Assembly (NCBI GenBank): GCA_965243805.1
Contig: OZ251577.1
Location: forward strand, 839,344-903,343
Length of the DNA: 64,000 nt
Reading direction: 5' to 3'
Source: Longimicrobiales bacterium
GTDB lineage: Bacteria; Gemmatimonadota; Gemmatimonadetes; Longimicrobiales; Gaopeijiaceae
Below the pieces are notes generated by a model. It worked only from the letters and a program-made list of their open reading frames with translations. It was not told the origin of the DNA and made no database searches. Made by a program: the position numbers and the translations under genes. Below, in pieces: positions 6,577-54,784 of this stretch (within the stretch, counting starts at the first letter, position 1; every line of letters starts with the position of its first letter).

Positions 6577-7239
6577 ATGACGAAATCCCGCTACACTTCG
6601 CTTCTGATCGTGGTCCTGGCAGCACTGGCATCCGCGAGCGAGCCCGAACCGGCGACCGCTCAGGTCGTGCTGGCTGTCCGGGGCGGCGCGTCGATGGCAA
6701 CGCTGGCCTACAAGTCCGCTCCCGGTGTCGACGTCGGCTACCGCCGAGGACTGGCCGTCGGTATGTCGGCAACCTACTACCCGAGAGAGAACATCGGGCT
6801 CAGGCTCGGCGGCGCCTTTGTCGCTAAGGGCGCCGTGGCCAGAATGGGGGAGCTCGAGAACCCCTTGAGCATCAACTATGTCGAGCTGTCCCCGATGTTC
6901 GACATCCGGGCAGTGGTCGGCGGGGGCGACCGGGAGATTTCGTTGCACCTGCTCGCGGGACCGACCGTGTCCCTCAAGCGGGCGTGCGAGAGCGAAATCC
7001 CGGGTGGCGGCACCAGGACGCGTTGCAAGGACCTCGAGCTGGACGTGGAGGCCCTGGATGTAGGCGCGACTGTGGGCGCAGGCTTGCAGTTTCAGCTTTC
7101 CAGAAGCTCCGCGGTGGCATTGTCCGTGGAGGCAATGTACACCCTCGGCTTGAGAGCAGTTCAGGACGCGGGAGGACGAAACCCTGCCAAGAATCGAGGC
7201 TTCGTCGCCCACACCGGCCTGAGCATCCCCGTCGGCTAG
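6577..7239 (+). CDS. Outer-membrane beta-barrel protein (OmpA-like / porin-family beta-barrel), 220 aa
   Basis: There is a signal peptide (MTKSRYTSLLIVVLAALASA) and alternating amphipathic beta-strands with a C-terminal aromatic. A good SD (aggag) lies 8 nt upstream of the ATG. Confidence 0.6.
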   Translation: MTKSRYTSLLIVVLAALASASEPEPATAQVVLAVRGGASMATLAYKSAPGVDVGYRRGLAVGMSATYYPRENIGLRLGGAFVAKGAVARMGELENPLSINYVELSPMFDIRAVVGGGDREISLHLLAGPTVSLKRACESEIPGGGTRTRCKDLELDVEALDVGATVGAGLQFQLSRSSAVALSVEAMYTLGLRAVQDAGGRNPAKNRGFVAHTGLSIPVG

Positions 7240-7267
7240 GCTAGGCTAGGCCGCCATCGAGCCGCTC

Positions 7268-9631
7268 ATGATCTCCTCGCCCACCGCATCAGTGCCGATC
7301 GCGCTCGTTTCGGCAGTCTTGCTGGCTGCCTGCCTGCTTCCATCTGCCGCCAGCGCCCAGCAGGGGTCCGTCGCAGGTCGGGTGCGGGCCGAAGACGGCG
7401 TTCCAGTGGCCGACGCCACGGTTCGCCTTCGCCTAGCGGCCGACTCGAGCGTGCGGCGGCTCACGGGCACGGACCGGCTGGGCTTCTTCGTCTTCCAGCG
7501 GGTAACCCCAGGGGAGTACCTGCTGACCGTTGCCCGGATCGGCTTCGGGCCTCGCACGGAGAGCGTGTCGGTGTCCGCCGCCCGGGACGCCCGCCTGGAC
7601 ATTGTGTTGTCCACGCAGGCCGTGGAGTTGGAGGGATTGGTGGTGGAGACCCGTCGCAGCCGTCGTCGCGAATGGTTCGAGGAGTCCGCTGGGGTGACGG
7701 TGGAGGAGCTGAACCGTGCGGAGATCAAGTCGATTCCGGGGATTGCCGAAGCCGATCCGATGCGGGCCGTGGAAGTATTGCCCGGCGTGGTCACCGTATC
7801 CGACTTCTCGTCGGCCTTCAACGTGCGGGGCGGCTCCGCGGACCAGAACCTCATCCTTCTGGATGGCGTCCCGATCATCAACCCCTTCCACTTGGCGGGC
7901 TTCTTTTCGGTCTTCAATGCCGACATGGTGGAGCGAGCCGAGCTTCGGTCCGGCGGCTTTCCAGCCGAGTACGGCGGGAGAGTGTCGTCGGTCCTTACGA
8001 TCGAGACGGACTTGGGCGACGGCGAGTTCGGAGTCGATTCGGGGTTGAGCCTGCTGGCGACCCGCGTGGCCGCCGGCGACGACTTGCCGGATGGTACCAA
8101 GGCGGCACTCGGCTTCAGCAGCGCTCGCTGGAGAGTCTCGGGTCGTCGGAGCTACTTCGACTTGTTATTGCCCGATCTGCCCTACTACCTGATGGACTTT
8201 CAGGGTGCCTTCGAGGCATGGACTCGAGGTGGACACCGGCTGAAGCTTACCGCGTATTCGGGACGCGACGTGCTGAACCCGCCGGCCAGCGACGACTTTG
8301 CAGGCATGAATTCGCGCTGGGGCAACGACGCCGTCGGCGCGTCGTGGACTCGCCCCATGAGCGGCGGCGGGGCGTTCGATCTGCGCGCCTCGTTCTCGCG
8401 CTTCCACATGGACTTCGACTTCTTTGACCAGTCCGACACTGACATCGCCAACGGCGTCAGCGAGTCCTTGTTCGGGGTCGACTTGGAGCGTCGCCCGACG
8501 CCCCGCATCCGCTGGAAGTCCGGGCTCTCGGCAAAGCGCGCCACATCCGACAACCTTTCGGAGATCGGCGGAGCGGTGCTACAAGATCAGCACTTCGGCG
8601 GCTGGGAGTTGGGAGCTTATACCCAGATGCGCTGGAACCCGAGTTCCCGCTGGTTGATCGAAGGCGGCGTGCGTGTGGACTACTGGGCGCCCAGCGAGTC
8701 CCAGGAGAGGGTCGCCGGCGAGTCCTCGAACATCGTCACGGTGTCGCCACGAGGGGCCGTCAAGCGCTTCGTCGGCAACGGCAACTGGGCCGTCCGCGTG
8801 GCAGGGGGCCGCTTCACCCAGTTTCTGCACTCGCGACGAGACGAACGGCTGCCCTTCGGCATCGACGTCTGGTTGCTGGCCGAGCGTGGCGTTACCCATG
8901 TCGTCTCGGACCAAGTCCAGATGGGAGTCGAAGGCTACTTCGGTCCCGACGAGGAATGGTCCGTGTCGGCAGAGGGCTACTACCGCAGCTTCGACGGCGT
9001 GATTGCGCAGAACAACACCGAGGACCCCGCCGATCCCATGGACGATGTGGTCTCCGGCGACGGATCGTCCTACGGTGCGGACCTGATGGTGCGCAAGTCC
9101 GAAGGAGAGACGACCGGCTGGGTCTCCATCTCTTTTCTGAAGGCGATCCGCCGGTTCCCGGACACGTACTCCAGCTTGACGCCAACGCCGATCGTGGAGC
9201 ATCCGCCAGTGTTCGACCAGCGCGTCGAGGTGGACTTGGTGCTGCGACGGCCGATGGGCTGGGGCTTGGTGGGCGGCCTGCGCTGGAACTTCGGCACTGG
9301 CCTCCCCTACACGCTGCAGCTGGCCTCCTTCCGCCACTTCGACAACCGGGTGGCAGACTTGCTCGTGGAGAAGGGATGTTGCCAGAAAGGCATTCTCCTG
9401 GGACCCCTCAATGGCGAACGCTACCCGGCGCGTCACAGGCTGGACATCAGTCTGCGCAAGCCCATGGACCGAAGCTGGGGACGCGTTGTCCCCTACCTGA
9501 GCGTGATCAATCTCTACAACCGGGACAACATCCTCTTCTATGTCTTCGACTACAGCCAAGCCGAAGTGGGTCGGCGGGGCATCTCCATGATTCCCTTCCT
9601 GCCCACAGCCGGCGTGGAGGTGACGTTTTGA
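7268..9631 (+). CDS. TonB-dependent receptor with an N-terminal carboxypeptidase-regulatory-like domain (787 aa)
   Basis: It has a signal peptide, a CarbopepD_reg-like beta-sandwich (GSVAGRV...TVRL), a plug domain (DGVPIINPF) and a C-terminal barrel ending in ...VEVTF. Confidence 0.8.
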   Translation: MISSPTASVPIALVSAVLLAACLLPSAASAQQGSVAGRVRAEDGVPVADATVRLRLAADSSVRRLTGTDRLGFFVFQRVTPGEYLLTVARIGFGPRTESVSVSAARDARLDIVLSTQAVELEGLVVETRRSRRREWFEESAGVTVEELNRAEIKSIPGIAEADPMRAVEVLPGVVTVSDFSSAFNVRGGSADQNLILLDGVPIINPFHLAGFFSVFNADMVERAELRSGGFPAEYGGRVSSVLTIETDLGDGEFGVDSGLSLLATRVAAGDDLPDGTKAALGFSSARWRVSGRRSYFDLLLPDLPYYLMDFQGAFEAWTRGGHRLKLTAYSGRDVLNPPASDDFAGMNSRWGNDAVGASWTRPMSGGGAFDLRASFSRFHMDFDFFDQSDTDIANGVSESLFGVDLERRPTPRIRWKSGLSAKRATSDNLSEIGGAVLQDQHFGGWELGAYTQMRWNPSSRWLIEGGVRVDYWAPSESQERVAGESSNIVTVSPRGAVKRFVGNGNWAVRVAGGRFTQFLHSRRDERLPFGIDVWLLAERGVTHVVSDQVQMGVEGYFGPDEEWSVSAEGYYRSFDGVIAQNNTEDPADPMDDVVSGDGSSYGADLMVRKSEGETTGWVSISFLKAIRRFPDTYSSLTPTPIVEHPPVFDQRVEVDLVLRRPMGWGLVGGLRWNFGTGLPYTLQLASFRHFDNRVADLLVEKGCCQKGILLGPLNGERYPARHRLDISLRKPMDRSWGRVVPYLSVINLYNRDNILFYVFDYSQAEVGRRGISMIPFLPTAGVEVTF

Positions 9632-20305: not shown

Positions 20306-20854
20306 ATGGACGCCAATGCCCCACTCGGAACCACCGCGCTGCTGGAGCGTCTGGACCAGCTGGGCGTGTCCCATCGGACTATTGACCACCCTGCGGTCTT
20401 CACCGTAGAGGAAGCCGCCCGCCTGCGGGGCCGGATCCCCGGAGCCCACTCCAAGAACCTCTTCGTGCGAGACAAGAAGGAGCGCCACTGGCTGGTCTCG
20501 TGCCTGGCCCGTCGGAAGGTGGACCTGAAGTGGCTGGCCGCGGGTCTCGGGACGAAGCGTCTCACGTTCTGCAGCAGGCGGCGGCTGGAGGGCTACTTGG
20601 GCATCCAGCCGGGGGCCGTGTCGCCGTTCGCGGTGATCAACGATATGGGCGGAGTGGTGCGGGTCGCGTTGGACGCCGAGCTGCTGGAGGCCGACCCCCT
20701 CAACTTTCACCCGCTGGACAACGCCAAGACCACAGCCGTGTCGCGGGCCGGGCTCATGCGGTTCCTAAAGGCGGAGAACCACGAGCCCCTGATCCTCCGC
20801 TTCCCCAGCCGGACGCAGGTCAGCGAAACGCGGGAACCACCTGCTCCAAGATGA
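20306..20854 (+). CDS. YbaK/ProX-family aminoacyl-tRNA editing deacylase (182 aa)
   Basis: The sequence MDANAPLG...HRTIDHPAVFTVEEA...GAHSKNLFVRDKK...GAVSPF matches the YbaK/ProX deacylase family. Confidence 0.7.
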   Translation: MDANAPLGTTALLERLDQLGVSHRTIDHPAVFTVEEAARLRGRIPGAHSKNLFVRDKKERHWLVSCLARRKVDLKWLAAGLGTKRLTFCSRRRLEGYLGIQPGAVSPFAVINDMGGVVRVALDAELLEADPLNFHPLDNAKTTAVSRAGLMRFLKAENHEPLILRFPSRTQVSETREPPAPR

Positions 20855-21974
20855 TCCTCAGCGTCTCTTGTTCGTAGTACCAGGCTTCGTCTCCGACCCC
20901 GTGCCAGTTGTTGGTGGCCGCAACCACCAAGTTGAGCCCCGGGACCACCACCAAGTACTGGCCGCCGTGCCCAGCGGCGAAGTAGAAGGACGCCCGAGAG
21001 CCCGGTCCCACCCACCAGAGGAAGCCGTAGGCCACATGCTCCAGTCCCCCCATGCGAAGCCGGTTGCCCGTGCCTGCAGTCGTGGAGAGGGCCACCCACC
21101 ATTCGGGCACGACTTGGCGGGCGCCGCTGGCCCCGCGCTGGAGAAAGAGCTGGCCGAAGCGGACCAAGTCCCTCGGGCGAAGGCGCAACCCCGACCCCGC
21201 GTTGTAGGAGGCAGGCCCCAGCGCCTCCCAGCGGCTCTCCGACACGCCGATGGGACCCAGCACCGCCTGCTGGGCCAAGTCGGGCAAGGGAGCCCCCATG
21301 GCCTCCTCCAGCACGATCCCCAGCAGATGGACAGCGGCCGAGTTGTAGTTGAACCGAGTTCCCGGCGGGTCCGCCAGCGGGGATTCCAGCAGGTACCGGA
21401 GGCGGTCCGGGGCCTCGATCCACTCCCTGTAGGAGCCGCCCGCCGCCGTCTCGTCCCAGGAGAACCCACTCGTCATCGTCAGCAGGTGGCGGACGGTGAT
21501 GCCGCCCTTCTCCGGCCCCAGATCGCCGGCCGAGAGGTCCAGGTAGCTCGACACGGGATCGTCCAGGCTTCCCAGGTCCCCCCGGCGAAGCGCGACTCCC
21601 GTCAGGGCGGACACCACGCTCTTGGCGACGGAGCGCACATCGTGGAGGCCGTCGGGGCGGCTCGTGCCGAAGTACTCCTCCAAGGCGAGGCGGCCGTCCT
21701 TCGCCACAAGCAGGCTCGTCATTCGGGGATTGGCCCAAGCTCGTCTCACAGCGTCTTCGACCATCTCCGGCGACCCGCCAGCTTCCTCCACGTCGGCGAC
21801 GACCCAGGGCGCGCTCAGCTCCACGCGAACCGGTTCGGGAACTCCCGGATCGAAGGGTCCGTCGCAACCGGCAGCCGCCAGTGGAACCACGACAGCCAGG
21901 GCGAGCGGGAGCCGAGTCCGAACGGTCCAACCTCCCCTTCCGTCGCTCCCGTTTCTTGGATGCTCTGGGGCCAA
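20820..21974 (-). CDS. Serine hydrolase of the beta-lactamase / PBP4* family, probable lipoprotein. The start codon is uncertain.
   Basis: The C-terminal 300 aa match class-C beta-lactamase-like hydrolases (...VRSVAKS..., FNYNSAAVHLLG...). The upstream in-frame segment ...RTRLPLALAVVVPLAAAGC looks like a lipobox, but I could not see a clean ATG or GTG start. A TTG at about 21974 is one option. Confidence 0.55.
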   Translation of the reverse strand: MAPEHPRNGSDGRGGWTVRTRLPLALAVVVPLAAAGCDGPFDPGVPEPVRVELSAPWVVADVEEAGGSPEMVEDAVRRAWANPRMTSLLVAKDGRLALEEYFGTSRPDGLHDVRSVAKSVVSALTGVALRRGDLGSLDDPVSSYLDLSAGDLGPEKGGITVRHLLTMTSGFSWDETAAGGSYREWIEAPDRLRYLLESPLADPPGTRFNYNSAAVHLLGIVLEEAMGAPLPDLAQQAVLGPIGVSESRWEALGPASYNAGSGLRLRPRDLVRFGQLFLQRGASGARQVVPEWWVALSTTAGTGNRLRMGGLEHVAYGFLWWVGPGSRASFYFAAGHGGQYLVVVPGLNLVVAATNNWHGVGDEAWYYEQETLRIILEQVVPAFR

Positions 21975-22039
21975 GTCGAGATTCTCCTTGACGAACGCCC
22001 TATGGCGTGGCACACTGGATCGTGTAATGTTACCTTCGG

Positions 22040-22147
22040 GAAAGAGGCCGACAAGAGGCCGACAAGAGGCCGACAAGAGGCCGACAAGAGGCCGACAAGA
22101 GGCCGACAAGAGGCCGACAAGAGGCCGACAAGAGGCCGATCCGAAAG
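22040..22147. repeat. Perfect tandem repeat, 11-bp unit (agaggccgaca) in about 9.7 copies, in the divergent intergenic region between the serine-hydrolase gene and the lipoprotein operon
   Basis: Contiguous identical units are read directly from the sequence. There are no spacers, so this is not a CRISPR array. Confidence 0.9.
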
Positions 22148-22187
22148 TCGGGCGGCGACAATCGGGCACTCGAACCAGGTGCGACAG

Positions 22188-22823
22188 ATGGACCGAGCCG
22201 GCTTGAGGCTGGCGGTGATGGCAGTCCTCACAGCGTGCACGGCTAGCCCAGACGGGGCGGCGCAGGTCGCCGATCCGGAAGAGCAGATGGCGCAGGCCCT
22301 TCTGGCCGCCCCCGCCGACAAGGCCGAGGGTGCCCGGTTGCTCGGCTGGACTACCGGCGGCGAGCTGGTGGAGTTGCGGCCCGGAACCACCGACATCACC
22401 TGTCACGCCTCCAACCCGGCCAACGAACGGTTCTCCACCTCCTGCTACCACAGTTCGCTGGAGCCCTACTTCGCACGGGGTCGGGAGCTGGATCGCGAGG
22501 GGGCGGCCTACGCCGACCGCTACCGCCTGCGGTTCGAGGAGATGGAGTCGGGGCAGCTCGCCATGCCGGCGTCGTTCGCAGTCCAGTACGTCTTCGACGG
22601 CACCTGGAACGCCGACACGAGGACGGGCGACGGCCAAGTCCGCTGGGTAATCTACGTCCCGGGTGCGACTGCCGAATCGACCGGGCTGTCGTCCGAGCCC
22701 CAGGAGAACGCTCCGTGGATCATGATGGAGGGCACCCCCGGCGCCCATGTCATGCCGCCCAGGGGGCGTGATCCCGGCCAGGGAGAGGATCCCGGCCAGG
22801 GAGAGGAGGGCGCTTCGAGATGA
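22188..22823 (+). CDS. Hypothetical lipoprotein (211 aa) with a C-terminal DPGQGE x2 repeat
   Basis: The lipoprotein signal is MDRAGLRLAVMAVLTAC. The 3' end contains an 18-bp tandem duplication. The stop overlaps the sugar-transferase start (ATGA). Confidence 0.5.
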   Translation: MDRAGLRLAVMAVLTACTASPDGAAQVADPEEQMAQALLAAPADKAEGARLLGWTTGGELVELRPGTTDITCHASNPANERFSTSCYHSSLEPYFARGRELDREGAAYADRYRLRFEEMESGQLAMPASFAVQYVFDGTWNADTRTGDGQVRWVIYVPGATAESTGLSSEPQENAPWIMMEGTPGAHVMPPRGRDPGQGEDPGQGEEGASR

Positions 22824-24298
22824 CGCGTCCCCAGGTCGTCCCCGACACCGCTCAATCAACCGACGCGGCTCGCGACAACATCTTCCATCCGCGACGGTCG
22901 TGGACCGAACGACCGAGCCTCAGGGGCACGCTGGGCCCAATCGGCAGGATCCGGCTCGCCGTCGCCACCCTGGCATTGGGCGACATCGCCGTCGGCGCAC
23001 TCGGCTTGGTCGTAGTGGCTTCGCTCCCCATCGTCGCGACGGACGGACTGGTCGTGGGGTTTACCGCGTTTTCGGTCTGCATGGTGCTAGGCCTGTACTT
23101 GGCGGGCGCATACAGCTCCGACGGCATAAGGGACGCCAAGAGCCTGACGATGAGCGTCTCCGCCGGACTGGGCCTCTCCGTACTCTTCGTCGCGGTGGTC
23201 GAGTTCGTCTGGCCGTCGTCCCTCTTGGGCAGGGAGGCGATCGCCTGGCTCTTCCTGGTCGTCGCGCCTCTGTTGTTCGCCTGGCGGTTTGCCGGGGTCG
23301 GTCGCACCCGAGTGCGCTTTGCGCCGAGCGCGGTGGCGATCGTCGGGAACGGAAGCGGCGCATACCGCTTGGGCAGTGTCCTGGCCGACTCGCCGTCCTT
23401 CTACTTGGCGACCACACTGGATCCGCTGTCCGCCAAGGCCATGCAGGTCGTGGAGCATGGCGGTCCGCCCGCCGCCGCCCCGGTCGCCGACATTCCGTTG
23501 ATCATGGCCCGCGCCGGAGTGAAGTTGATCGCCGTAGCCGACTCGGCCCCCGAGTACCAAGCCGCCCTTGTGCGGCAGCTGCGGCAGTGCAGAAGCACGG
23601 GCGTGGACGTTCAGGATGTGGCCACTTGCATCGAGATGCTCTCCCAGAAGGTTCCGGTTCGCGACCTGCAGAAGTGGCGCAAGCCCTCGATCAGCTTTCC
23701 GGGCTGGGAGCGAGCGTTCGACGACAAGCTGAAGCGCATCGGGGACGTGGGCCTGTCGCTGATCGCTATGGTCCTGGCGGCCCCGCTGATGCTCTTGGCC
23801 GCAGTGGCCGTACGGTGGAGCGACGGCGGCCCGGCGATGTACAAGCAGATTCGGGTAGGCAATCACGGCCGAAGGTACACGCTGTACAAGTTTCGCTCCA
23901 TGGAAGTGGACGCGGAGCGCAACGGAGCCGTCTGGGCGACGAAGGACGATCCCCGGGTGACGAAGGTGGGCCGGTTTCTGCGGAAGTTCCACTTGGACGA
24001 GCTGCCCCAGCTCTGGAACGTCTTCCGGGGCGACATGAGCTTGGTGGGACCGCGACCCGAGCGTCCCGAGTTCGTCGGCTGGCTGCGATTGTCGATTCCG
24101 CACTACGACGCCCGACACACCATCAGGCCGGGGATCACGGGCTGGGCCCAGATCCGCTACCCGTACGGCGCATCTGCCGCCGACGCCGAGTCGAAGCTGG
24201 AGTACGACCTCTACTACGTTCGCCACAGGAACATCCTCTGGGACCTTTACATCCTCTTCCAGACTGTGATGGTCGTGTTCCGGGGAAGGACCAGCTAG
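22820..24298 (+). CDS. Polyprenyl-phosphate sugar phosphotransferase (bacterial sugar transferase, WbaP/EpsB family), 492 aa
   Basis: It has N-terminal TM helices and the C-terminal catalytic domain motifs ...SLVGPRPERPEF... and GITGWAQI. Confidence 0.8.
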   Translation: MTRPQVVPDTAQSTDAARDNIFHPRRSWTERPSLRGTLGPIGRIRLAVATLALGDIAVGALGLVVVASLPIVATDGLVVGFTAFSVCMVLGLYLAGAYSSDGIRDAKSLTMSVSAGLGLSVLFVAVVEFVWPSSLLGREAIAWLFLVVAPLLFAWRFAGVGRTRVRFAPSAVAIVGNGSGAYRLGSVLADSPSFYLATTLDPLSAKAMQVVEHGGPPAAAPVADIPLIMARAGVKLIAVADSAPEYQAALVRQLRQCRSTGVDVQDVATCIEMLSQKVPVRDLQKWRKPSISFPGWERAFDDKLKRIGDVGLSLIAMVLAAPLMLLAAVAVRWSDGGPAMYKQIRVGNHGRRYTLYKFRSMEVDAERNGAVWATKDDPRVTKVGRFLRKFHLDELPQLWNVFRGDMSLVGPRPERPEFVGWLRLSIPHYDARHTIRPGITGWAQIRYPYGASAADAESKLEYDLYYVRHRNILWDLYILFQTVMVVFRGRTS

Positions 24299-24335: not shown

Positions 24336-25778
24336 GTGATCGGCGCCGTCGCCCTGCCGACCCTCGTCGTCGGCGTCATCGTTGTGCAGGTCGTCTTCGT
24401 GGTGTTCGTGCTGTTGCGGCCCCGAGTGCGCCAGCCTTCTTCACCTGCGTGGATCCTGGTCATTCTCGTGCTGCCGGTATTGGGCGTGGCACTCTACTTG
24501 GTCGTCGGCGAAGTCCGGGCTGGAAGCAAACGCAAGCAGCGGCACAGGACGATTCACGCCAGCATCGGAGCCGTTCTTCGCAAGGCCTGGGCAGTGGACC
24601 CGGAGCCCGCCGACGTGGAGGGGAGCATCCAGTCGGTTGCCAGACTGGCCCGGTTGGTGGGGGACACGCAGCCCCGTGGGGGGAACCGTCTGACGCTGCT
24701 GGCCGGCGCCGAAGAGTTCGTGGGCAGCTTGGTGCGAGATGTTGGCTCGGCGCGGGAGCATGTGCACCTCCTCTTCTACATCTACCTGGACGATGAGATG
24801 GGGCGCGCCGTGGGCGCTGCCCTGACCGCTGCCGCCGCCAAGGGCGTGGACTGCCGACTGCTGGTGGACAACGTGGGCTCCGCCGAGTTCCTCAAGTCCA
24901 AGTTGTGCAAAGAGCTGCGAGCGGGCGGCGTTCGCGTGGCGGCGGCGTTGCCTACGCGCATCACCCAAATCGCGTCGATCCGCTTCGACATGCGCAACCA
25001 CCGGAAGATCGCCGTCGTGGACGGCAAGGCGGGCTACACCGGAAGCCACAACTTGGCAGCGGAGGCGTTCCATCCCAAGCCCCGCTTCGCGCCGTGGATC
25101 GACGCCACCCTGCGGATCGAGGGGCCAGTCGTGCGCGACCTTCAGGCCCTCTTCGTGGAGGACTGGTACATGGACACGGGCGAGAGCTTGGAGGGGCTGA
25201 TCGCGATCTCGCCCCGCACCCACGCCCCAGGGACCGTGGTCCAGGTGGTGGGCAGCGGCGTCAACTCCCAGAACCAGGCGCTGGTGCGAGTCATCCAGTC
25301 GGCGGTCCACATGGCTCGGGAGGAGCTGGTCCTCACCACGCCCTACTTCGTGCCCGACGAAGGCACGGCCGCGGCCCTGACCACCGCCGCGATGCGGGGC
25401 GTGCGCACCGTGATCGTGGTCCCGGCACGGAACGACTCGCCGCTGATCGCCCTGGCCAGCCGCAGCTTCTACCAGCCCCTGCTGGACGCCGGCGTCGAGG
25501 TCCACGAGTTCACCAAGGGACTCCTCCACGCCAAGACGATGACCGTGGACCGAGAGTTCGCCATGGTGAGCACGGCCAACCTGGACCGCCGGAGCTTCGA
25601 CATCAACTTCGAGGTCTCCACTCTGGTGTACGACAGCGCCTTCGCGTCGGGCTTGCGCCAGCTGCAGACTGGGTACCTGGAGGAGTGCCGCGTCGTGGAC
25701 GCAGCGGCTTGGGCCTCGCGGAGTTGGCCGCGCCGCTTGGCTGAGAACGCGGCAGGGCTGGTAAGCCCGCTGCTGTGA
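24336..25778 (+). CDS. cls: Cardiolipin synthase (phospholipase D superfamily, two HKD motifs), 480 aa
   Basis: There are N-terminal TM helices. The two HKD motifs are HRKIAVVDGKAGYTGSHNL and HAKTMTVDREFAMVSTANLD. Confidence 0.8.
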   Translation: MIGAVALPTLVVGVIVVQVVFVVFVLLRPRVRQPSSPAWILVILVLPVLGVALYLVVGEVRAGSKRKQRHRTIHASIGAVLRKAWAVDPEPADVEGSIQSVARLARLVGDTQPRGGNRLTLLAGAEEFVGSLVRDVGSAREHVHLLFYIYLDDEMGRAVGAALTAAAAKGVDCRLLVDNVGSAEFLKSKLCKELRAGGVRVAAALPTRITQIASIRFDMRNHRKIAVVDGKAGYTGSHNLAAEAFHPKPRFAPWIDATLRIEGPVVRDLQALFVEDWYMDTGESLEGLIAISPRTHAPGTVVQVVGSGVNSQNQALVRVIQSAVHMAREELVLTTPYFVPDEGTAAALTTAAMRGVRTVIVVPARNDSPLIALASRSFYQPLLDAGVEVHEFTKGLLHAKTMTVDREFAMVSTANLDRRSFDINFEVSTLVYDSAFASGLRQLQTGYLEECRVVDAAAWASRSWPRRLAENAAGLVSPLL

Positions 25779-26854
25779 GCCTGCCGGACGAGGACGCTCC
25801 GTCCCGGGTGGCGGCGGAGTGGGCCCGTGGCCGGCCAGCACCGGCTGCGGCGGGGCGAGGTGTTGCCGCGGCGGGACGAGGGGCTGCCGCGGGGCGATGC
25901 ACTGCGCTTGTGGTGGGCGACCCCTCCGCCGAGCTGGCCCGTGCGCTGGAGGAGTCAGGAGTCGCGACAACCCGGTGGCGGCGGACGCTCTCGCCTGGGC
26001 AGTTGTGCACGCCGTGGCCTCCCGCTGGCCGGTTCCGGGAGGCTTGGGTGCGGATGCCGCGGGCGGGAGCGGAAGCGGCCATGCTCCTGCACGCGGCCGC
26101 TGCGCGAGTGGGCGACGGGGAGCCGGTCTTCCTCTTCGGCGCCGGCCGCGACGGCATCCGCGCCGCCGCCAAGCGCTTCCCGCCCGGAACGGCCCCGCCC
26201 CGCACCCTTCTCGTCAAGCGGCGATGCCGAGTGCTGTGCGCGGTCCGCCTCGCTCCGCCGCCCCGCCCAGACTGCTTGGCGGTGTGGGAGGTCTCCGGCG
26301 CCGTGGACTGGGGCGCGGGCAGGCGCGAGTGGACGTTCTACCCGGGAGTCTTCGCGTGCGGGCGGCTGGACTCGGCGACGGCCCTCCTCGCCCACGCGCT
26401 CGCAACCGGTCCCGCGCTGCCGAACGACTGCCGCATCCTGGACTTCGGGGCCGGCACCGGCGTTCTGGCCGCGGCGGCGATAGAAAAGGCGGGTCCCGGC
26501 GCGACGGCCCACCTGCTGGACCCGGACGCGATCTCGCTGGCGGCTGCGGCCCGCAACGTCCCCTCGGCAACACGGGTGCTGGGGAGCGGCGCCGATGCCG
26601 TGGATCGCCCTTTCGACCTCATCGTCTCCAACCCGCCGATCCACGAGGGCCGCCGTGAGAGCCTCCGCACCGTCGCTGAACTCGCGGCGGGCGCCCCGCG
26701 CTTGCTGTCACCGGGTGGGCGCCTTCTCCTGGTGGCCCTGCGGAAGCTGCCCGTCGGCGACGTGCTGCGCCGGCGCTTCAAGCGGGCCAAGACGGTGGCG
26801 GACGAAGGCGCGTTCCGGGTGTGGGAGGCGGCGGAAGGACGCGGTCAGCCGTAG
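25775..26854 (+). CDS. Class I SAM-dependent methyltransferase, RsmC/RlmG-like (rRNA m2G methyltransferase family), 359 aa
   Basis: The SAM-binding motif is ILDFGAGTGVLA and the catalytic motif is DLIVSNPPIHEG (NPPxH). The ATG overlaps the cls stop. Confidence 0.6.
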   Translation: MSLPDEDAPSRVAAEWARGRPAPAAAGRGVAAAGRGAAAGRCTALVVGDPSAELARALEESGVATTRWRRTLSPGQLCTPWPPAGRFREAWVRMPRAGAEAAMLLHAAAARVGDGEPVFLFGAGRDGIRAAAKRFPPGTAPPRTLLVKRRCRVLCAVRLAPPPRPDCLAVWEVSGAVDWGAGRREWTFYPGVFACGRLDSATALLAHALATGPALPNDCRILDFGAGTGVLAAAAIEKAGPGATAHLLDPDAISLAAAARNVPSATRVLGSGADAVDRPFDLIVSNPPIHEGRRESLRTVAELAAGAPRLLSPGGRLLLVALRKLPVGDVLRRRFKRAKTVADEGAFRVWEAAEGRGQP

Positions 26855-31128: not shown

Positions 31129-31255
31129 CTTGTGGTCTCGGGGAAGTCGGGAGCGTGCGGGATGGATGGAACTGCCGGGAAGGCTATCCGCCGCGTGTCA
31201 CGGTGCGGTAACCGAAAGGCAACGATGCCGTTCGTGCCGCCGACGCCGAGCCGAT

Positions 31256-31320
31256 CCGCGAACGCCAAACCCGCGAACGCCAAACCATTCTCGCCGACGC
31301 CAACCCTTCTTCGCCGACGC
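31256..31320. promoter_or_regulatory. Direct-repeat cluster upstream of pstS (2 copies of ccgcgaacgccaaac, then tcgccgacgc repeated at 20-bp spacing). It may be a Pho-box-like regulatory array.
   Basis: The repeats are read from the sequence. The Pho-regulon interpretation is inference. Confidence 0.35.
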
Positions 31321-31321
31321 G

Positions 31322-32680
31322 CTACGCCGGAAGCAGCTTCTCGCGGTCTTCAGGGAGTTGGCCCTCGATCGCCTCCCCTGCGGCCGCTGGCCGGCCTTCG
31401 CCGTCGTCGGTCGGCCCGGCCCCAACGGCCCGTCTCAGGACCTCCTCGATGTCCAGTCCCAGCACCGACGCCAACCCCTGCATCGTGCCGTAGGCACCGC
31501 GGACGCGCTGGTTGAGGGCGTTGGACACGCCGTCGCCCTGGCCGCCGTCCATGACCACCACCCGGTCGATGTCCACGCCCTTGACCGCGTCTACCGCCGT
31601 ATCGAGCAGCTCGGGCAGCTTCTCGGCTAAGAAGATCGCGAAGGCGGCGTCGCCTCCGGCCCGCACTTCCCCGTAGAGCCGTCGCAGCACCTCCACCTGG
31701 GCCTTGCCGCGCTCCAGGATCGGCGCCGCCTCGGCTTCGGCGCGCGCGAAGGCGGCCTCCTTTTCGGCCTTGGCCGGCTCCACCACGTCGGCCCGCAGCC
31801 GCTGCTCCTCGCGCTCGACCCTCTTCTCCTCCAGGACCTTCTCGGCCTCCACTTCGGCCTCCATGGCACGCACTCGGGCGATCTTCTCGGCGGTCACGCC
31901 CTCCTGGTCCAGCTCGGCTTGGCGCACCCGCAGCGCGTTGCGCGCCTCCGAAACCTTGATCGACGCGCCCGCCTCCCGCACCTCGGCCCGCTGACGGGCT
32001 TCGGCTTGGGCTTCCCGGGTGTCGGCCTCGGCCTGCGCTTCGGCGATCTCGGCGTGGCGGATCGCTTCGGCCGACTTCTTGCGCCCGATCGCCTCCAGGT
32101 AGCCCCGCTCGTCGCTCACGTTCTGGATCTTCAGCACGTCCAGGTGGAAACCCAGCGAGGCCAAGTCTTCTCCCGCGTCCTCCGAGAGCGCCTTGGCGAA
32201 GCCCAGCCGGTCCTCGTTGACGGCTTCCGGCGTCATGGTGGCCAGAACGCCCCGCAAGTTCCCCGTCAGCGTGTCCTGGGCCAGGAGACGGACCTCCTCC
32301 TCCGACTTCCCCAGCAGGCGCTCGACGGCGTTGTTGAAGACCCATTCGGGCTCGGAGGCGACCTTCACGTTGGCGATCGCCTCCACGTTCAGGGGGATGT
32401 TCCCCTTGGAGAAGGCGTTCTTGACCAGCACTTCGATGGGGATCGTCTCCAGGTTGACGTGCTGGACCGTCTCGATGATCGGGACGCGGAGCGTTCGCCC
32501 TCCGCTGATGGAGCGGTAGCCGACGGCTTGGCCGTCCTTGAGCTTGCGCTTTCGGCCTGTGAGGACGGCTGCTCGGTTCGGCGGCACGATGACGATCAGC
32601 GTCTTGATGGTGGTGATCAGCACGACGACCACGAAGAGGACGATGGCGGCGACGACGGCCGCGGGAATCAACGATTCCAT
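31322..32680 (-). CDS. SPFH / band-7 flotillin-family protein (YqiK-like), 452 aa
   Basis: There is an N-terminal TM helix, an SPFH domain, and a long Glu/Ala-rich coiled coil (EAQAEADTREAQAEARQRAEVREA...). Confidence 0.75.
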   Translation of the reverse strand: MESLIPAAVVAAIVLFVVVVLITTIKTLIVIVPPNRAAVLTGRKRKLKDGQAVGYRSISGGRTLRVPIIETVQHVNLETIPIEVLVKNAFSKGNIPLNVEAIANVKVASEPEWVFNNAVERLLGKSEEEVRLLAQDTLTGNLRGVLATMTPEAVNEDRLGFAKALSEDAGEDLASLGFHLDVLKIQNVSDERGYLEAIGRKKSAEAIRHAEIAEAQAEADTREAQAEARQRAEVREAGASIKVSEARNALRVRQAELDQEGVTAEKIARVRAMEAEVEAEKVLEEKRVEREEQRLRADVVEPAKAEKEAAFARAEAEAAPILERGKAQVEVLRRLYGEVRAGGDAAFAIFLAEKLPELLDTAVDAVKGVDIDRVVVMDGGQGDGVSNALNQRVRGAYGTMQGLASVLGLDIEEVLRRAVGAGPTDDGEGRPAAAGEAIEGQLPEDREKLLPA

Positions 32681-35456: not shown

Positions 35457-35644
35457 ACCCCATGGGCTGGTGCACCAAGCTGAGGGCTTGTTGCTGGCCG
35501 ATCTGCCTAGCTGTTCTTGGGTTTGCGTCGGGTGCGTGTGCGCCGGACGGCCAGCGGTGGACCTGGGTCAAGGACACGGCCTTCCAGATCACGTAGGGGG
35601 CCTTGCCCCCGCGCCCCCTGACGGCCACATTCCCTCGCACAACT

Positions 35645-35818
35645 GAAACGGCCGGAGGGGCTCACGGAAGCCGGTGCGAACCCGGCGCGGCCCCGCCACT
35701 GTGACGAGGTCCGGGACGAGCTTCCCGGAACGTCCGCTCCACCATGCCACTGGAACCCTGTCGGGCCGGGTTCTGGGAAGGCGAGTGGGACGGCCTCGCT
35801 AGCCAGGAGACGTGCTCC
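35645..35818 (+). promoter_or_regulatory. Cobalamin (AdoCbl) riboswitch in the 5' leader of the TonB-dependent receptor gene
   Basis: The leader contains GGAAGCCGGTGCGAACCCGGCGCGGCCCCGCCACTGTGACG, which matches the conserved core and B12 box (GCCACTG). The downstream AGCCAGGAGACGTGC matches the 3' conserved element. Confidence 0.65.
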
Positions 35819-35926
35819 TTCGGCACCCACGTCAACGCCTCCGCGGGGAGGCGAGGGTGCTCGTGAACCAGCGCAACGCGGTGCTGGCATGTCCCTCTTC
35901 TTCCGCACGGGGGAAAGGAGAGAGGC

Positions 35927-37972
35927 ATGATGAAGTTCTGCGTCACGCGAGTCCCTTCCCCGGCGGCCCTTCTGGTCGCCCTTCCGCTCGTTCTCGTTCC
36001 GCCGGCCGTCTCCCAAGAGCAGCCTGTGCCGCTTGAGGGGCTGGTGGTCACCGCTTCGAGGGGGCCGGCGCCGGCGTGGACTGTCGCGTCCCACACCACC
36101 GTGCTGGAAGGCGAGGCGCTGGAGCGGGCGGGCATCGAGTACGTGGCCGACGCGCTCCGGCAGCTTCCCGGCGTAGCGGTGGTGCGCAACGGATCGTTCG
36201 GGGCGACCACCTCCGTCTTCCTGCGGGGCGGCGAATCGGACTACGTGCAGGTTCTGGTGGACGGCGTGCCCGCCAACGAGCCGGGAGGCCGCTTCGACTT
36301 CGGGTCGATCAGCACCGACAACGTGGAGCGGATCGAGGTGGTGCGGGGACCGGCGTCCGCGCTGTACGGCTCCGACGCCGTGAGCGGAGTCGTCCACATC
36401 CTGACCCGACGGGGCCAGGGGCAGCCGGCCGCCCACCTTTCCTGGCGAGCCGGGAGCTTCGGCACGCGACAGTGGGAAGGGGCGGTCTCCGGCGGCTCCA
36501 GACTCCTCTCCTACGCCTTTTCGCTGGGACGCAACGACTCCGACGGTATTCTGGAGTTCAACAACGGCCATCGGGCGACCACAGCTAGTGGGCGCGTCCA
36601 TGTCCAGCCGGATTTACGCACCGACGCGGCACTCTCGGTCCGCTACGAGGACCGGCGCTTCCACTTCCCCACCGACGGCTCCGGCGCTCTGGTGGACCGG
36701 AACGCCTTCACCTTCGGTGACGCGCTGGCGGTGGCGGTCGACGCCGGGCGGCGCTGGACGGACGCTTTCGAGACGCGAGTGGCCGTGACCGTACACGAAT
36801 CCGACGGAGGAACCGACGACGGACCCGACGGACCCGCGGACACGCTGGGGTTCTTCGGCTTCCAGAGCCTGGGCGACGTTCGCCGGGCGACCGCAGACGC
36901 CCGCGCCACATGGCGGTTCGAGGGCGAGTCCACGCTGGCTGTGGGAGTGGAGGTGGAGCGCCAGTCGATCCGGGATTTCAGCAAGTCGCTGTCCCAGTTC
37001 GGGAGCAGCCCCAGCCGGTCGGAGAACGAGCGGTCGAACCGAGCGGCCTATGCCCAGGTCTTGGCCGTGCTGGGCGGACCTTCTGGCGGCAGTGCGGCCG
37101 GGGAGTTGGCGCTGAACGGGGGCGGGGAGCTGGCGCTGAACGGGGGCGTGCGGCTGGAGGACAACGAGCGCTTCGGGACGGCGGCAACGTGGCGGGGCGG
37201 TGCGGCTTGGCGGACCCCCCTGCGAGGGACTCGGCTGCGGGTCTCGGTTGGCACCGGGATCAAGGAGCCCACCTTCTTCGAGTCCTTTGCCTCGGGTTTC
37301 GCAAGGGGTAATCCAGAGTTGGAGCCGGAGCGCTCGACGGGCTTCGAGGCCGGTGTGGATCAGGATATGGCAGGCGGGGCGGTCCGGCTCTCGCTGACCG
37401 GGTACTCCCAGAGCTACCGCAACCTGATCCAGTACACCTTCTCGCCGCCGGTGGCAGGCGGTCCCAACTACCACAACGTGGCCAAGGCGCGGAGCCGCGG
37501 CGTGGAGGCCGAGGCGACGGCTGCGGCGGGCCCGGTGCGGCTGTCGGCCTCGTACGCGTGGGTGGACACGGAGGTGCAGGACGCCGGCTTCGACGAGGGA
37601 CCAGGGGCGTCGTTCGTGGAGGGACAGCCGCTGCTTCGGCGCCCGAAGCACACTGTGACGGCCAGTGCTTTCGTCCCGGTCGGCGAGCGCGTCGGCTTGG
37701 ACTTGGCGGCTCGGCGAGTCGGCGAGCGGGAGGACCGGGACTTCGGGACGTGGCCCGCGACCCCGGTGGTGCTGGCCCCCTACACCGTGGTGGACGCGGC
37801 GGTCCATGCTCGGCTGTTCGGGGGCGACGGCCGGCCCGCGCTGGACCTGATCGTCCGCGCCGAGAACGTGCTGGGCGCCGACTACCAGGAGGTGCACGGC
37901 TTCGCTGCACCCGGGCGCGGCGTGTACGTCGGCGGGAAGGTGTCGGTGGGCGGCAGCGGCGGCGAGCGGTAG
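35927..37972 (+). CDS. btuB: TonB-dependent outer-membrane receptor, BtuB-like (cobalamin/corrinoid uptake inferred from the riboswitch), 681 aa
   Basis: It has a signal peptide, a TonB box region, a plug (...RIEVVRGPASALYGSDAVSGVVHILTRRG) and a barrel. A strong SD (ggaaaggagagagg) precedes the ATG. Confidence 0.75.
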   Translation: MMKFCVTRVPSPAALLVALPLVLVPPAVSQEQPVPLEGLVVTASRGPAPAWTVASHTTVLEGEALERAGIEYVADALRQLPGVAVVRNGSFGATTSVFLRGGESDYVQVLVDGVPANEPGGRFDFGSISTDNVERIEVVRGPASALYGSDAVSGVVHILTRRGQGQPAAHLSWRAGSFGTRQWEGAVSGGSRLLSYAFSLGRNDSDGILEFNNGHRATTASGRVHVQPDLRTDAALSVRYEDRRFHFPTDGSGALVDRNAFTFGDALAVAVDAGRRWTDAFETRVAVTVHESDGGTDDGPDGPADTLGFFGFQSLGDVRRATADARATWRFEGESTLAVGVEVERQSIRDFSKSLSQFGSSPSRSENERSNRAAYAQVLAVLGGPSGGSAAGELALNGGGELALNGGVRLEDNERFGTAATWRGGAAWRTPLRGTRLRVSVGTGIKEPTFFESFASGFARGNPELEPERSTGFEAGVDQDMAGGAVRLSLTGYSQSYRNLIQYTFSPPVAGGPNYHNVAKARSRGVEAEATAAAGPVRLSASYAWVDTEVQDAGFDEGPGASFVEGQPLLRRPKHTVTASAFVPVGERVGLDLAARRVGEREDRDFGTWPATPVVLAPYTVVDAAVHARLFGGDGRPALDLIVRAENVLGADYQEVHGFAAPGRGVYVGGKVSVGGSGGER

Positions 37973-39705: not shown

Positions 39706-41781
39706 ATGACGACGCTCCCGACGCCCCAGCGCTCCTTTTTTGGCTTTCCTCGCACGGCAGTCTGCGCCGGGCTCCTCGCCTTTGCGCTCGCTGGGATGAA
39801 CGACCAGGGGCTGGCGCAGCAACCCGAGAGCGACGCGCCCGACAACGACCGCTGGACCCCGGCGCTCAGCATGCACTACTCCCAACTCTCGGGCCTAGCG
39901 ATCTCCAGCGACGGCGCCGACGTGGCGTACGTGGTCCGCGAGCCTCTCATGGAGGGGGAGAAGTCCGAGTACCTGACCCACGTGTGGCTGGCGTCCAGCG
40001 ACGGAACTCGAGACCGCCAGTTCACGCGGGGCGCCAAATCGGCCTCCAATCCGTCGTTCTCGCCAGACGGCCGGTGGCTGGCCTTCACCACATCGCGCTC
40101 CGGCAAGAATCAGATATGGGTGATCGCCCTGGCAGGCGGCGAGGCCCGGCAGCTCACCGACGCCAAGGCCGGCGTGGGCGCGTACAGTTGGTCGCCAGAC
40201 GGAACCGCCATCGCCTTTGTGATGCGGGACCCGCCCACCGAGGAAGAGGAGAAGGCCGAGAAGGAGAAGCGGGACGTGGTCCTGGTGGATCAGAACTTCA
40301 AGTACGGCCACCTGTACACCGTGCCCTTCGACCCCGCCTCCACCGAGCCAGCCGAGGCCGTCCGCGTCACCGAGGGCGACTTCCACATCACCGGCTTCGA
40401 CTGGAGTCCCGACGGAAGGCGCCTGGTATTCGCTCACCAAGCCGACCCCCGCATCAACACGGGACGGCTTTCCGGCGACATCTCCATCGTCGGCGCTACC
40501 GGGGGCGACATCCGGCCGCTGGTAACCGGACCCGGAGTAGAGTCAGGTCCTCACTGGTCCCCCGACGGTGCCTTGATCGCCTATGCGTCCACCGGAGACC
40601 AGCCCGAGCCGATCGGCTTGGAGGATCTGTACGTGGTGGACCCAGAGAGCGGCGAGTCGCGGCGGCTAGCCGACACGCCGAACCGAAGCGCGTTCATCTT
40701 GGGATGGTCCGCCGATTCGAGGGAAGTCTTCCTGAACGAGGTGCTGCGCACGACCCGTCATGTCGTCACCGTGCCCGTCGGCGGAGGCGACGTGCGACAG
40801 GTCACCCAAGGCGAAGGCGTGGTAGGCTCCGTGGCGTTGGCGCCCGAAGCGGGACGCTTGGCACTGACGTGGGAGACGACCGACGAGCCCGTGGAAGTGC
40901 ACGTGTCGTCGCTGGCCGACTTTGCCCCGTCCCAGTTGAGCAGCGTGAACCAGGACGCGCCCCGCCCGCCGATGGGCCGCACCGAGCTACTGTCGTGGAG
41001 CGCGCCCGACGGCACCCCGGTGGAGGGACTGCTCACCTACCCCGTCGACTGGGAAGCCGGGACCCGGGTGCCCCTGATCCTCAACGTGCACGGCGGTCCG
41101 GCCGGCGTCTTCAGCCAGTCCTTCACTGGCTCGCCCAGCATCTACATGATCCAGTACTTCGCCCAGGAGGGCTTCGCCGTCTTGCGGCCCAACCCTCGCG
41201 GAAGCACTGGCTACGGCAAGGAGTTCCGCTACGCCAACTTCATGGACTGGGGCTACGGCGACCTGTCGGACCTGCTGGCGGGCGTGGACCACGTGATCGA
41301 GATGGGCGTTGCTCATGCCGACAGCCTGCTGCTGATGGGATGGAGCTACGGCGGCTACATGACGTCGTTCGCGGTGACCCAGACCGACCGCTTCCGCGCC
41401 GCGTCGATGGGCGCCGGTCTGCCGAACCTGATCAGCATGGTAAGCACGACCGACATCGGCGACTACTTGGCGGGCCACATGGGCGGCGAGTACTTCGACG
41501 ACTACGAGACCTACGAGAAGCACTCTGCCGTGTACCACATCAAGAACGTGACGACGCCCACCCAGGTGATCCACGGCGCTCAGGACCTGCGCGTCCCCTT
41601 CACCCAGGGCCAAGAGTTCTACAACTCGTTGACGCGCCTGGGCGTCGAAACCGAGATGATCGTCTATCCGCGCACGCCCCACGGTCCACGGGAACCCAAG
41701 TTCCTCATGGACGTGTCGGAGCGGATCATGACGTGGTTCGAGAAGCACCTGCGGAAGGAACCGCCCAGGGCGGACGGGTGA
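39706..41781 (+). CDS. S9-family serine peptidase (prolyl oligopeptidase / acylaminoacyl-peptidase-like) with an N-terminal beta-propeller, 691 aa
   Basis: It has a signal peptide, WD40-like/TolB-like repeats (SFSPDGRWLAF, SWSPDGTAIAF), the catalytic nucleophile GWSYGG, and Asp/His downstream. Confidence 0.8.
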   Translation: MTTLPTPQRSFFGFPRTAVCAGLLAFALAGMNDQGLAQQPESDAPDNDRWTPALSMHYSQLSGLAISSDGADVAYVVREPLMEGEKSEYLTHVWLASSDGTRDRQFTRGAKSASNPSFSPDGRWLAFTTSRSGKNQIWVIALAGGEARQLTDAKAGVGAYSWSPDGTAIAFVMRDPPTEEEEKAEKEKRDVVLVDQNFKYGHLYTVPFDPASTEPAEAVRVTEGDFHITGFDWSPDGRRLVFAHQADPRINTGRLSGDISIVGATGGDIRPLVTGPGVESGPHWSPDGALIAYASTGDQPEPIGLEDLYVVDPESGESRRLADTPNRSAFILGWSADSREVFLNEVLRTTRHVVTVPVGGGDVRQVTQGEGVVGSVALAPEAGRLALTWETTDEPVEVHVSSLADFAPSQLSSVNQDAPRPPMGRTELLSWSAPDGTPVEGLLTYPVDWEAGTRVPLILNVHGGPAGVFSQSFTGSPSIYMIQYFAQEGFAVLRPNPRGSTGYGKEFRYANFMDWGYGDLSDLLAGVDHVIEMGVAHADSLLLMGWSYGGYMTSFAVTQTDRFRAASMGAGLPNLISMVSTTDIGDYLAGHMGGEYFDDYETYEKHSAVYHIKNVTTPTQVIHGAQDLRVPFTQGQEFYNSLTRLGVETEMIVYPRTPHGPREPKFLMDVSERIMTWFEKHLRKEPPRADG

Positions 41782-41785
41782 CGTC

Positions 41786-43276: not shown

Positions 43277-43282
43277 ACGAAC

Positions 43283-43831
43283 ATGACTTCAGTTAGAAAT
43301 GCCATTTTGGCAAAGATTGAATCCCGTTGGCAGACGACCGAATCCCGTTGGCGGACCACAACATGCCAAAGCAATAACTGCTCGGTTGACATGGACAATG
43401 CCCCGGAACCGTTTGACATGATCAACCTCGATCGGATTGCGACAAGGGATCTGGAAGCCATGAGCGTCGATCGAAAGCGTTGCGACTACCTGTACTTGGG
43501 CACGGCGGACAACGGTGGTCACGTGGTGATCGCTCCTATTGAACTGAAGGGGGGCACCAACTTTCGGTCAGCCACTGTCGTACAGCAGTTGCAGACGGGA
43601 GCCGAGATAGCGGATGCCATCGTTCCGGCCGATGTGTCCTTCTCGTTTGTTCCCGTACTGGCTTCCCATAAGCCTCGGCGGCGTCATGTATGGCGGGGAC
43701 TGCGGACGCCAGTCATCTTCCGCAACAAGAGCCGTGCCATAACGACAATACAATGCGGCGAGCGGCTCACGACTGCGTTGGAGGCGGCCAGGACCAGGCG
43801 GGCCCCGGCCCCCGCGGTCGTCAGCTCGTAG
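43283..43831 (+). CDS. Hypothetical protein (182 aa), partner of the ATPase. No recognisable domain.
   Basis: It starts 7 nt after the ATPase stop and has the same low GC. It contains a tandem 21-bp duplication (ESRWQTT ESRWRTT). Confidence 0.4.
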   Translation: MTSVRNAILAKIESRWQTTESRWRTTTCQSNNCSVDMDNAPEPFDMINLDRIATRDLEAMSVDRKRCDYLYLGTADNGGHVVIAPIELKGGTNFRSATVVQQLQTGAEIADAIVPADVSFSFVPVLASHKPRRRHVWRGLRTPVIFRNKSRAITTIQCGERLTTALEAARTRRAPAPAVVSS

Positions 43832-43859
43832 CGGGCCAGCACGCGAGGGAACGCGCCGT

Positions 43860-45572: not shown

Positions 45573-45624
45573 GGATTCTTCCTCTCTGGGCGGCAGTTGC
45601 CGGATCTGTTGTACCGACGCATGA

Positions 45625-50335: not shown

Positions 50336-50372
50336 GCGGGAACACTCCCGGACGGATCGGCTGGGTCGACCT

Positions 50373-54646: not shown

Positions 54647-54784
54647 CGCTAGGGACTGTGCTGCCGCTCCAGCTCGGAGAGTCCGACAGCAGTTACGCCC
54701 TGGCCCAGCGACAGTCGCCCCACGCCCGAATGCACGCCGTATCCGTGGCCAGCCCTCTGCCGGCGAGCAGGCTCCTCGGGCGAG

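Follow-up and report, generated by a model that had tools for sequence, protein, structure and literature searches.

The well-documented cases of repeat-driven variation in gene expression come chiefly from host-adapted pathogens, and their units are for the most part 1–7 nt long. In Moraxella catarrhalis, an (AGAT)n repeat in the 5′ untranslated region (5′-UTR) of uspA2 reportedly modulates mRNA level or translation, and in Helicobacter pylori the G-repeat of tlpB is a target of the small RNA RepG. An (ATCTTTC)n repeat in the 5′-UTR of Haemophilus influenzae hmw1A and hmw2A exerts number-dependent, graded control (PMC12721329, PMC2424069). Tandem 11-bp repeats are also familiar as operators: the CarH operator consists of 3–4 tandem copies of nnnnTnnACAn (PMC9304148), and OmpR/PhoB-family and SARP operators are built from 11-bp direct repeats (PMC10936776), as are PHO boxes (PMC9019756). 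Heptameric TAACTGA repeats are dispersed between genes in Beggiatoaceae, Cyanobacteria and Bacteroidetes, with 169 sets per genome (PMC4679880). Here we describe a perfect tandem array with an 11-nt unit, found in an uncultured environmental phylum within a 64,000-nt stretch of the genome of a Longimicrobiales bacterium (Gemmatimonadota; contig OZ251577.1, positions 839,344 to 903,343). We refer to this whole stretch, which has a G+C content of about 68%, as the window. The array stands ahead of genes for a lipoprotein, a sugar transferase, a cardiolipin synthase-like protein (cls) and a methyltransferase, and we examine below whether it may tune their expression.

22042..22140, + strand: tandem array, (AAGAGGCCGAC)x8 plus a terminal AAGAGGCCGAT, established by direct reading, Tandem Repeats Finder and pattern search, with orthologous sites in relatives

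Eight perfect units of AAGAGGCCGAC occupy 22042-22129 and are followed by a ninth, AAGAGGCCGAT, which agrees at 10 of 11 positions (22130-22140). Tandem Repeats Finder delimited the array to 22042-22139, with a period of 11, 8.9 copies, 100% matches and 0 indels over 98 bp, and its score of 196 was the highest of all repeats that this program found in the window. Allowing at most one mismatch, the 11-mer occurred 13 times in the window versus 1.9 occurrences expected, a count reached in 0 of 100 shuffles. The sense strand of the unit is purine-rich and contains no T. An earlier sequence-only reading of this DNA had recognized a perfect 11-bp head-to-tail repeat, as borne out here; its extent of 22040-22147, with 9.7 copies, overshot by about one unit. 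That reading was also right that this is not a CRISPR array, since the units are contiguous, with zero spacers.

We scanned for two tandem units in one genome per species, and in metagenome and viral collections. Among the genomes, a single related locus was found, in the 4.14-Mb chromosome of a Longimicrobiales metagenome-assembled genome (MAG; OZ242008.1, hereafter L003), and within that chromosome the array is unique. The metagenome scan returned nothing relevant and the viral contigs contained no match. Apart from this locus, the genome scan gave two unrelated chance arrays of 2–3 copies, and the chance arrays of all scans were in Sutterella, Methylobacterium and an actinobacterium-like contig. 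A degenerate 11-bp array, CAGGAGGCCGAC AAGAGGCCGAC AAGAGGCCGAC AGGACACCGAC GAGACACCGAC, was seen at 2080-2140 of the JGI contig Ga0325400_1002540 (L028), an unrelated high-GC contig with a different gene context, and we take it to be a chance resemblance. A dispersed repeat family was rejected on these grounds, namely a single locus in the related chromosome and only chance arrays elsewhere. Unlike the dispersed TAACTGA repeats, the array is a locus-specific element.

We then compared orthologous loci, starting from 287 homologues of the lipoprotein encoded downstream. The few with a source name come from Gemmatimonadota/Longimicrobiales MAGs, and some distant ones (about 45% identity) are named Blastocatellia. 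The same unit was present at the orthologous site in L003, L005, L006 and L029-L034, which fall into three species-level lineages, here called species A, B and C. In species A, the lineage of the window (about 97% DNA identity), the window has 8.9 units and L029 has 5.9; L030 has at least 5 units, an N-gap and then 0.9 unit, and the L004 contig terminates within the array. Species B is represented by the HiFi contig L005, with 5 units. Among the long-read or complete assemblies of species C, the complete chromosome L003 and L033 each have 7 units and L031 (long-read, 3.1 Mb) has 5; L006 has 5, L032 at least 6 with an N-gap, and L034 only 2, in a k-mer-based contig that has probably collapsed. 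These strains are closely related, L003 and L006 sharing 97% DNA identity and L031-L034 an identical lipoprotein. Every interior unit in 10 contigs was AAGAGGCCGAC, with 0 variants. The same array in independent assemblies of relatives, a HiFi contig and a complete chromosome among them, establishes that it is no artefact of the window's assembly.

Two of the features expected of an intergenic rheostat or contingency locus are present: a promoter or leader region with perfect repeats arranged head-to-tail, and copy-number polymorphism between close strains. The sequence-only reading had proposed a comparison of related genomes and named a constant copy number across strains as evidence against its view. 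Copy number does differ, at 5 versus 7 units beside an identical lipoprotein and at 5.9 versus 8.9 within the window's own species. Short-read assemblies break or have an N-gap at the array. These contig ends and gaps are compatible with heterogeneity within a population, and also with plain failure to resolve a repeat. Because such assemblies fail at the array, annotation pipelines will usually miss a locus of this kind.

The distant orthologues (L007-L025; 62-67% protein identity) have no array and the same gene order: a TonB receptor, a small open reading frame (ORF), tRNA_edit, the hydrolase (− strand), the lipoprotein (+ strand), sometimes Bac_transf, cls, MTS, and pstB (− strand). A single-copy precursor was sought in these relatives, and no sequence within 3 mismatches of the unit was found in any rotation. 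Because the array-less relatives keep the gene order and lack a unit-like sequence, the comparison indicates that the array is an innovation of one clade.

Across the locus, DNA identity among the three array-bearing species is about 80%, and the proteins of the operon are 71-89% identical. At four-fold degenerate sites (n=500), 45% were identical in all three species, and only 11% of those that are A in the window; of the flanking non-coding columns (n=93, including the promoter-like motif and the ribosome-binding site (RBS)), 39% were identical. In the unit, all 11 positions are the same in the three species, for which the probability is about 1.5e-4 at the four-fold rate, about 3e-5 at the rate of the flanks and 1e-6 with base-specific rates. 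A neutral unit under concerted evolution should evolve at the neutral rate, so identity at 11 of 11 positions argues against a purely neutral minisatellite. The array is thus old and has been kept uniform by turnover, with a unit under constraint. Its perfect identity had been read as a sign of recent expansion, which does not fit an unchanged unit at one and the same locus in species this far apart. The comparison provides evidence of hypervariable copy number and also of long-term purifying selection on the unit.

The main rival explanation is nonetheless a neutral one. An 11-bp duplication could have arisen once in the common ancestor, in a leader that tolerates insertions, and slippage would then keep the array uniform while its copy number drifts without affecting expression. 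A perfect array of variable copy number with no recognizable motif, RNA family or partner would fit such a history, as would the lack of a single-copy precursor or related sequence in the array-less relatives, whose leaders are long (75-115 nt) and poorly conserved, which suggests tolerance. What this account leaves unexplained is a unit identical at all 11 positions where neutral and flanking sites are three-way identical in only 39-45% of cases, the lack of any variant among the interior units of 10 contigs, and the persistence of the array through two or more speciation events, with no reliable assembly showing fewer than 5 copies. We regard neutral drift as possible, though less likely than not.

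We aligned 9 orthologous upstream regions from lineages with and without the array. A motif pair is conserved among them, nTG(G/A)C(G/A) and, after 16-18 nt, (T/G/C)AATGT, the latter reading TATAAT in L018; several lineages have TTGGAC after the pair. In L003 the pair is near consensus (TTGACG-17-TAATGT). The standard distance from a −10 element to the transcription start is 7-9 nt. On this basis, the elements around the array in the window are as follows.

22002..22007, + strand: putative −35-like hexamer ATGGCG, from the alignment; TTGACG, GTGACA, ATGGCA and CTGGCG in orthologues
22025..22030, + strand: putative −10-like hexamer TAATGT, 17 nt past the −35-like hexamer, conserved with or without the array and lying within the pseudo-symmetric TAATGTTA
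22037..22039, + strand: predicted transcription start, 7-9 nt past the −10-like hexamer, with the array 3-5 nt further on
22141..22187, + strand: remainder of the putative leader beyond the repeats, containing an RBS-like AGGTG (22177-22181) inside a conserved CAGGTG(C/T)GA

The array starts 10-11 nt past the −10-like hexamer and ends 47-49 nt ahead of the start codon in all three species, and the CAGGTG(C/T)GA element is predicted to form a duplex of −6.2 kcal/mol with the anti-Shine–Dalgarno (anti-SD) sequence. Given the conserved −10-like hexamer 10-11 nt upstream, the array probably forms the first 55-100 nt of a transcribed leader of about 150 nt. The proposal of the sequence-only reading that copy-number change would move upstream elements in phase sits poorly with this arrangement, in which the promoter-like motif is upstream of the array and the array falls in the operon's putative leader.

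Taking these results together, we propose that the array is a hypermutable, sequence-constrained cis-regulatory repeat whose copy number tunes the lipoprotein/sugar-transferase/cls/methyltransferase operon in a graded manner, a reading to which we give an even chance. What is seen directly is an array of perfect units in a fixed position, with polymorphic copy number and a conserved unit; the promoter, the transcription start, any influence on expression and a partner for the unit are inferred. Replication slippage would gain or lose whole 11-bp units, giving alleles of about 5 to 9 units in the population. Each unit would be a recognition element for a partner, and copy number would set the strength with which the operon is repressed or boosted, so that the array would work as a graded rheostat with no on/off frameshift switch.

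The partner might act at either of two levels. On DNA, the 11-bp period corresponds to one helical turn and would place head-to-tail sites on one face from about +5 to +100, forming an operator or roadblock whose occupancy would rise with copy number; the exact 11-bp period, which is the architecture of several head-to-tail DNA-binding regulators, favours such a one-face multi-site arrangement. On RNA, a U-free, purine-rich leader at the 5′ terminus could bind a protein or the ribosome, or alter mRNA decay; such a leader composition and a location at the predicted start of the transcript speak for action through the mRNA leader, as in hmw1A. The two mechanisms fit the data about equally well, and we advance each of them only tentatively. 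Equally tentative is a further idea, that a trans-acting factor specific to the clade recognizes the unit, be it a protein binding head-to-tail on one face of the DNA or an RNA-binding partner, in which case the array would be a self-adjusting multivalent site whose valency is shifted by slippage.

Of the described systems, the repeat-number rheostats in the leaders of hmw1A and uspA2 come closest to this locus. Like hmw1A and hmw2A, it combines a perfect repeat between a (putative) promoter and the start codon with a surface-related gene and copy-number polymorphism among strains. It differs in that base pairing between the 7-nt hmw units and a G-rich arm creates a long hairpin, which RNase III cleaves, whereas the 11-nt unit of the array has no complementary arm. 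The hmw repeat is moreover transcribed and graded in its effect; for the array, transcription and effect are predicted. Variable leader repeats at an envelope or sensor gene reportedly also occur in uspA2 and tlpB, one of them with a trans-acting partner; their units are of 1-4 nt and their hosts are host-adapted pathogens, in contrast to the 11-nt unit and environmental lineage found here. With CarH, PhoB-family and SARP operators the array shares the 11-bp head-to-tail period, the placement on one helical face and a position adjoining or overlapping the core promoter. In those operators the number of repeats is fixed, at 2-5, and the repeats are imperfect, about 6-7 positions being conserved, whereas the array has 5-9 perfect units and is hypervariable. 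Rheostats of this kind are already known; what is notable in the array is the 11-nt unit, the environmental phylum and the fact that copy number is hypervariable while the unit is strictly conserved. Should the array be functional, free-living bacteria would join those that tune envelope genes heritably, here in a compact system of one unit and one operon with natural alleles of 5-9 units. If a clade-specific factor reads it, a free-living Gemmatimonadota lineage of soil or sediment would diversify its envelope (lipoprotein, glycan priming and cardiolipin) heritably and reversibly.

A number of results weigh against regulation by repeat number. Some copy numbers come from short-read assemblies, which can collapse repeats (the 2 units of L034 being the clearest case), and the independent array-bearing lineages number only 3, so that some of the 11 positions may be conserved by chance. 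The promoter rests on conservation: a scan with a sigma-70-type consensus, that of E. coli, detected no site, promoters of Gemmatimonadota being uncharacterized, and the −35-like hexamer, although conserved, matches the E. coli consensus weakly. No regulator gene was found in the 64-kb window. Folding of the array RNA gave only weak, register-ambiguous ladders of 4-bp GGCC:GGCC pairs, and no supported covariation.

Specific identities for the unit were also considered. A CarH-type operator was rejected because the best phase, GAGGCCGACAA, has C in place of the required T and the sense strand is T-free; no MerR/B12-binding gene was found in the window. A PHO box, an idea suggested by the adjoining pstSCAB genes, was rejected because the repeats upstream of pstS differ in sequence (GGTTTGGCGTTCGCG) and have a period of 15-20. 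An anti-SD array, serving as a ribosome standby site or in mRNA stabilization, is unsupported: the predicted duplex with an assumed anti-SD sequence, −5.8 kcal/mol, was matched or beaten by 34% of random 22-mers, leaving the GAGG core no better a partner than these. A hairpin of the hmw type, cut by RNase III, was rejected for want of a complementary arm, of covariation and of any inverted repeat of the array within 300 nt. Rfam contained no match at gathering score, and at E<=10 gave one chance match (E 6.5). Intrinsic curvature was unremarkable in a rough test, a wedge model giving 37 degrees over 98 bp, a value equalled or exceeded by 70% of shuffled-unit arrays.

The repeats ahead of pstS are a feature of their own: at 31225-31330 (− strand), two direct copies of GGTTTGGCGTTCGCG and related GGTTGGCGTCGGCG copies recur with a period of 15-20, as candidate sites for a Pho-type regulator.

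We also considered whether the array could serve the serine-hydrolase gene that is transcribed leftward from the other side of the intergenic region, an idea close to that of the sequence-only reading, which had placed the repeat in a divergent promoter. The elements concerned are these.

20820..21974, − strand: beta-lactamase-family serine hydrolase lipoprotein, with a likely TTG start at 21974 preceded by AAGGAG (21984-21989, plus-strand coordinates)
22027..22054, − strand: possible leftward promoter for the hydrolase gene, with a −35-like TTGTCG (22054→22049, in the first unit), a 16-nt spacer and a −10-like TAACAT (22032→22027)

The AAGGAG-containing site of the hydrolase gene has a predicted anti-SD duplex of −8.3 kcal/mol. 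On the minus strand the array reads as repeats of GTCGGCCTCTT; the first unit would supply the −35 element (TTGTCG), and the others would form a phased platform for an activator or an UP-like element. The minus-strand TAACAT overlaps the plus-strand −10-like hexamer, and TTGTCG, the 16-nt spacer and TAACAT are found on the minus strand of L005 as well as of the window, so that a leftward promoter using the first unit is possible. Overlap with the −35 element is typical of regulators that recognize 11-bp direct repeats, which would suit this arrangement. Bidirectional bacterial promoters have a pseudo-symmetric −10 region and start sites about 18 bp apart (Warman et al. 2021, as described in PMC10268837). 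The putative core promoter here is similar: TAATGTTA is pseudo-symmetric and reads TAnnnT on both strands, the predicted starts are 17-18 bp apart, and the genes diverge. This likeness concerns the adjoining core promoter and not the array proper.

The distribution of the hydrolase gene speaks against its being served by the array. Species C retains an array of 5-7 units and has no hydrolase gene at this position; instead, the 3′ end of the co-directional tRNA_edit gene lies about 35 nt upstream of the promoter-like motif. Conversely, relatives without the array keep the hydrolase gene in place. Copy number, furthermore, leaves the spacing of the leftward −35 and −10 elements unchanged. A role in hydrolase expression is therefore improbable. 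Because species C keeps the array without the hydrolase gene, the array follows the plus-strand operon rather than the divergent arrangement. Between divergent envelope-related genes is indeed where the repeat lies in this genome, and a divergent promoter as its general setting is contradicted by species C.

That the array is a coding repeat, giving the lipoprotein a phase-variable N-terminal extension (repeat peptide EADKRPTRGRQ, from an ATG at 22002 of the window whose reading frame runs through the array into the lipoprotein), or that it is a mis-assembly, can be dismissed almost entirely: the period of 11 is not a multiple of 3, the array is open in all frames only for lack of a T in the unit, conservation of the in-frame ATG fails in L006, where there is none, alleles that differ by 2-3 units change the frame, a lipoprotein signal peptide must be N-terminal, and independent HiFi and complete-chromosome assemblies contain the array.

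The operon that the array is proposed to tune comprises four co-oriented genes, on which pstSCAB converges from the right.

22188..22823, + strand: lipoprotein gene, 211 aa, signal peptide MDRAGLRLAVMAVLTAC, without a Pfam domain
22820..24298, + strand: polyprenyl-phosphate sugar transferase (Bac_transf; PF02397, E 8e-68), whose start overlaps the lipoprotein stop
24336..25778, + strand: cardiolipin synthase-like PLD protein (PLDc_N, PLDc_2 x2)
25775..26854, + strand: RsmC-like small-domain methyltransferase (MTS, MTS_N), the final gene of the co-oriented block

These assignments, with that of the serine hydrolase, agree with what the flanking genes had earlier been taken to be. The lipoprotein belongs to an uncharacterized family in which Cys72, Cys86 and His88 are invariant and His187 and Met189 nearly so. 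Its fold is predicted with confidence (pLDDT 85), and a fold search against the PDB gave no informative match. Exact look-ups of the window's lipoprotein and sugar-transferase sequences found no match. At the 3′ end of the lipoprotein gene (22770-22807), a perfect 18-bp tandem duplication (x2.1) adds 6 aa (DPGQGE). This insertion is private to the window allele, being missing in the same-species relatives P0001 and P0121 (96% identity), and constitutes a second length polymorphism at the array locus.

Elsewhere in the window, a defence-like island of lower G+C content (59-65%) extends over 41732-55621. It includes a PD-T4-4/AriA/GajA-like ATPase gene (41732-43276, + strand), a gene for an HKD(PLD) plus SNF2 helicase with DrmD-like matches (45625-49266, − strand), a CapP/RmrA-like M78 peptidase gene (49157-50407, − strand) and a type IIG/DrmMI-like methylase. 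The type IIG restriction-methylase gene (50373-54784) is interrupted precisely where a 26-nt homopolymer occurs (51273-51298; C26 in plus-strand terms, G26 on the coding minus strand): the ORF at 51137-54784 (− strand) corresponds to positions 30-1096 of the PADLOC profile PDLC03620 and that at 50373-51314 (− strand) to positions 1100-1370. An insert of about 120 nt at the split reads TTGACA-16-TATAAA, G26, AGGAGG, GTG, that is, a near-consensus promoter, the tract and an RBS before the C-terminal part. The split may represent a phase-variable specificity module, a frameshift or a long-read homopolymer error. A second homopolymer, at 54579-54595 (G17 on the plus strand, C17 on the minus strand), directly follows a −10-like TATGCT and lies about 45-60 nt upstream of the start of the type IIG profile match, which places it in the promoter or leader of that gene.

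The two island homopolymers and the array each follow a −10-like hexamer directly, so this genome may repeatedly place hypermutable tracts where leaders start, with long-read homopolymer errors as a possible source of the two G/C tracts. If a clade-specific factor does read the array, the array and the homopolymers together would suggest that hypermutable tracts at the starts of leaders are in general use beyond host-adapted pathogens.

Three further elements were noted. Immediately ahead of a TonB-dependent receptor gene (35867-37972) is a cobalamin riboswitch (35641-35833; Rfam RF00174, 67.8 bits). A perfect pentamer repeat, (GGCTA)3.6 at 7234-7251, ends at the start of a plus-strand TonB-receptor-like ORF (7250-9631), and its reverse complement, (TAGCC)3 at 55892-55906, ends at the start of a plus-strand ORF for an AMP-binding enzyme (55895-57616).
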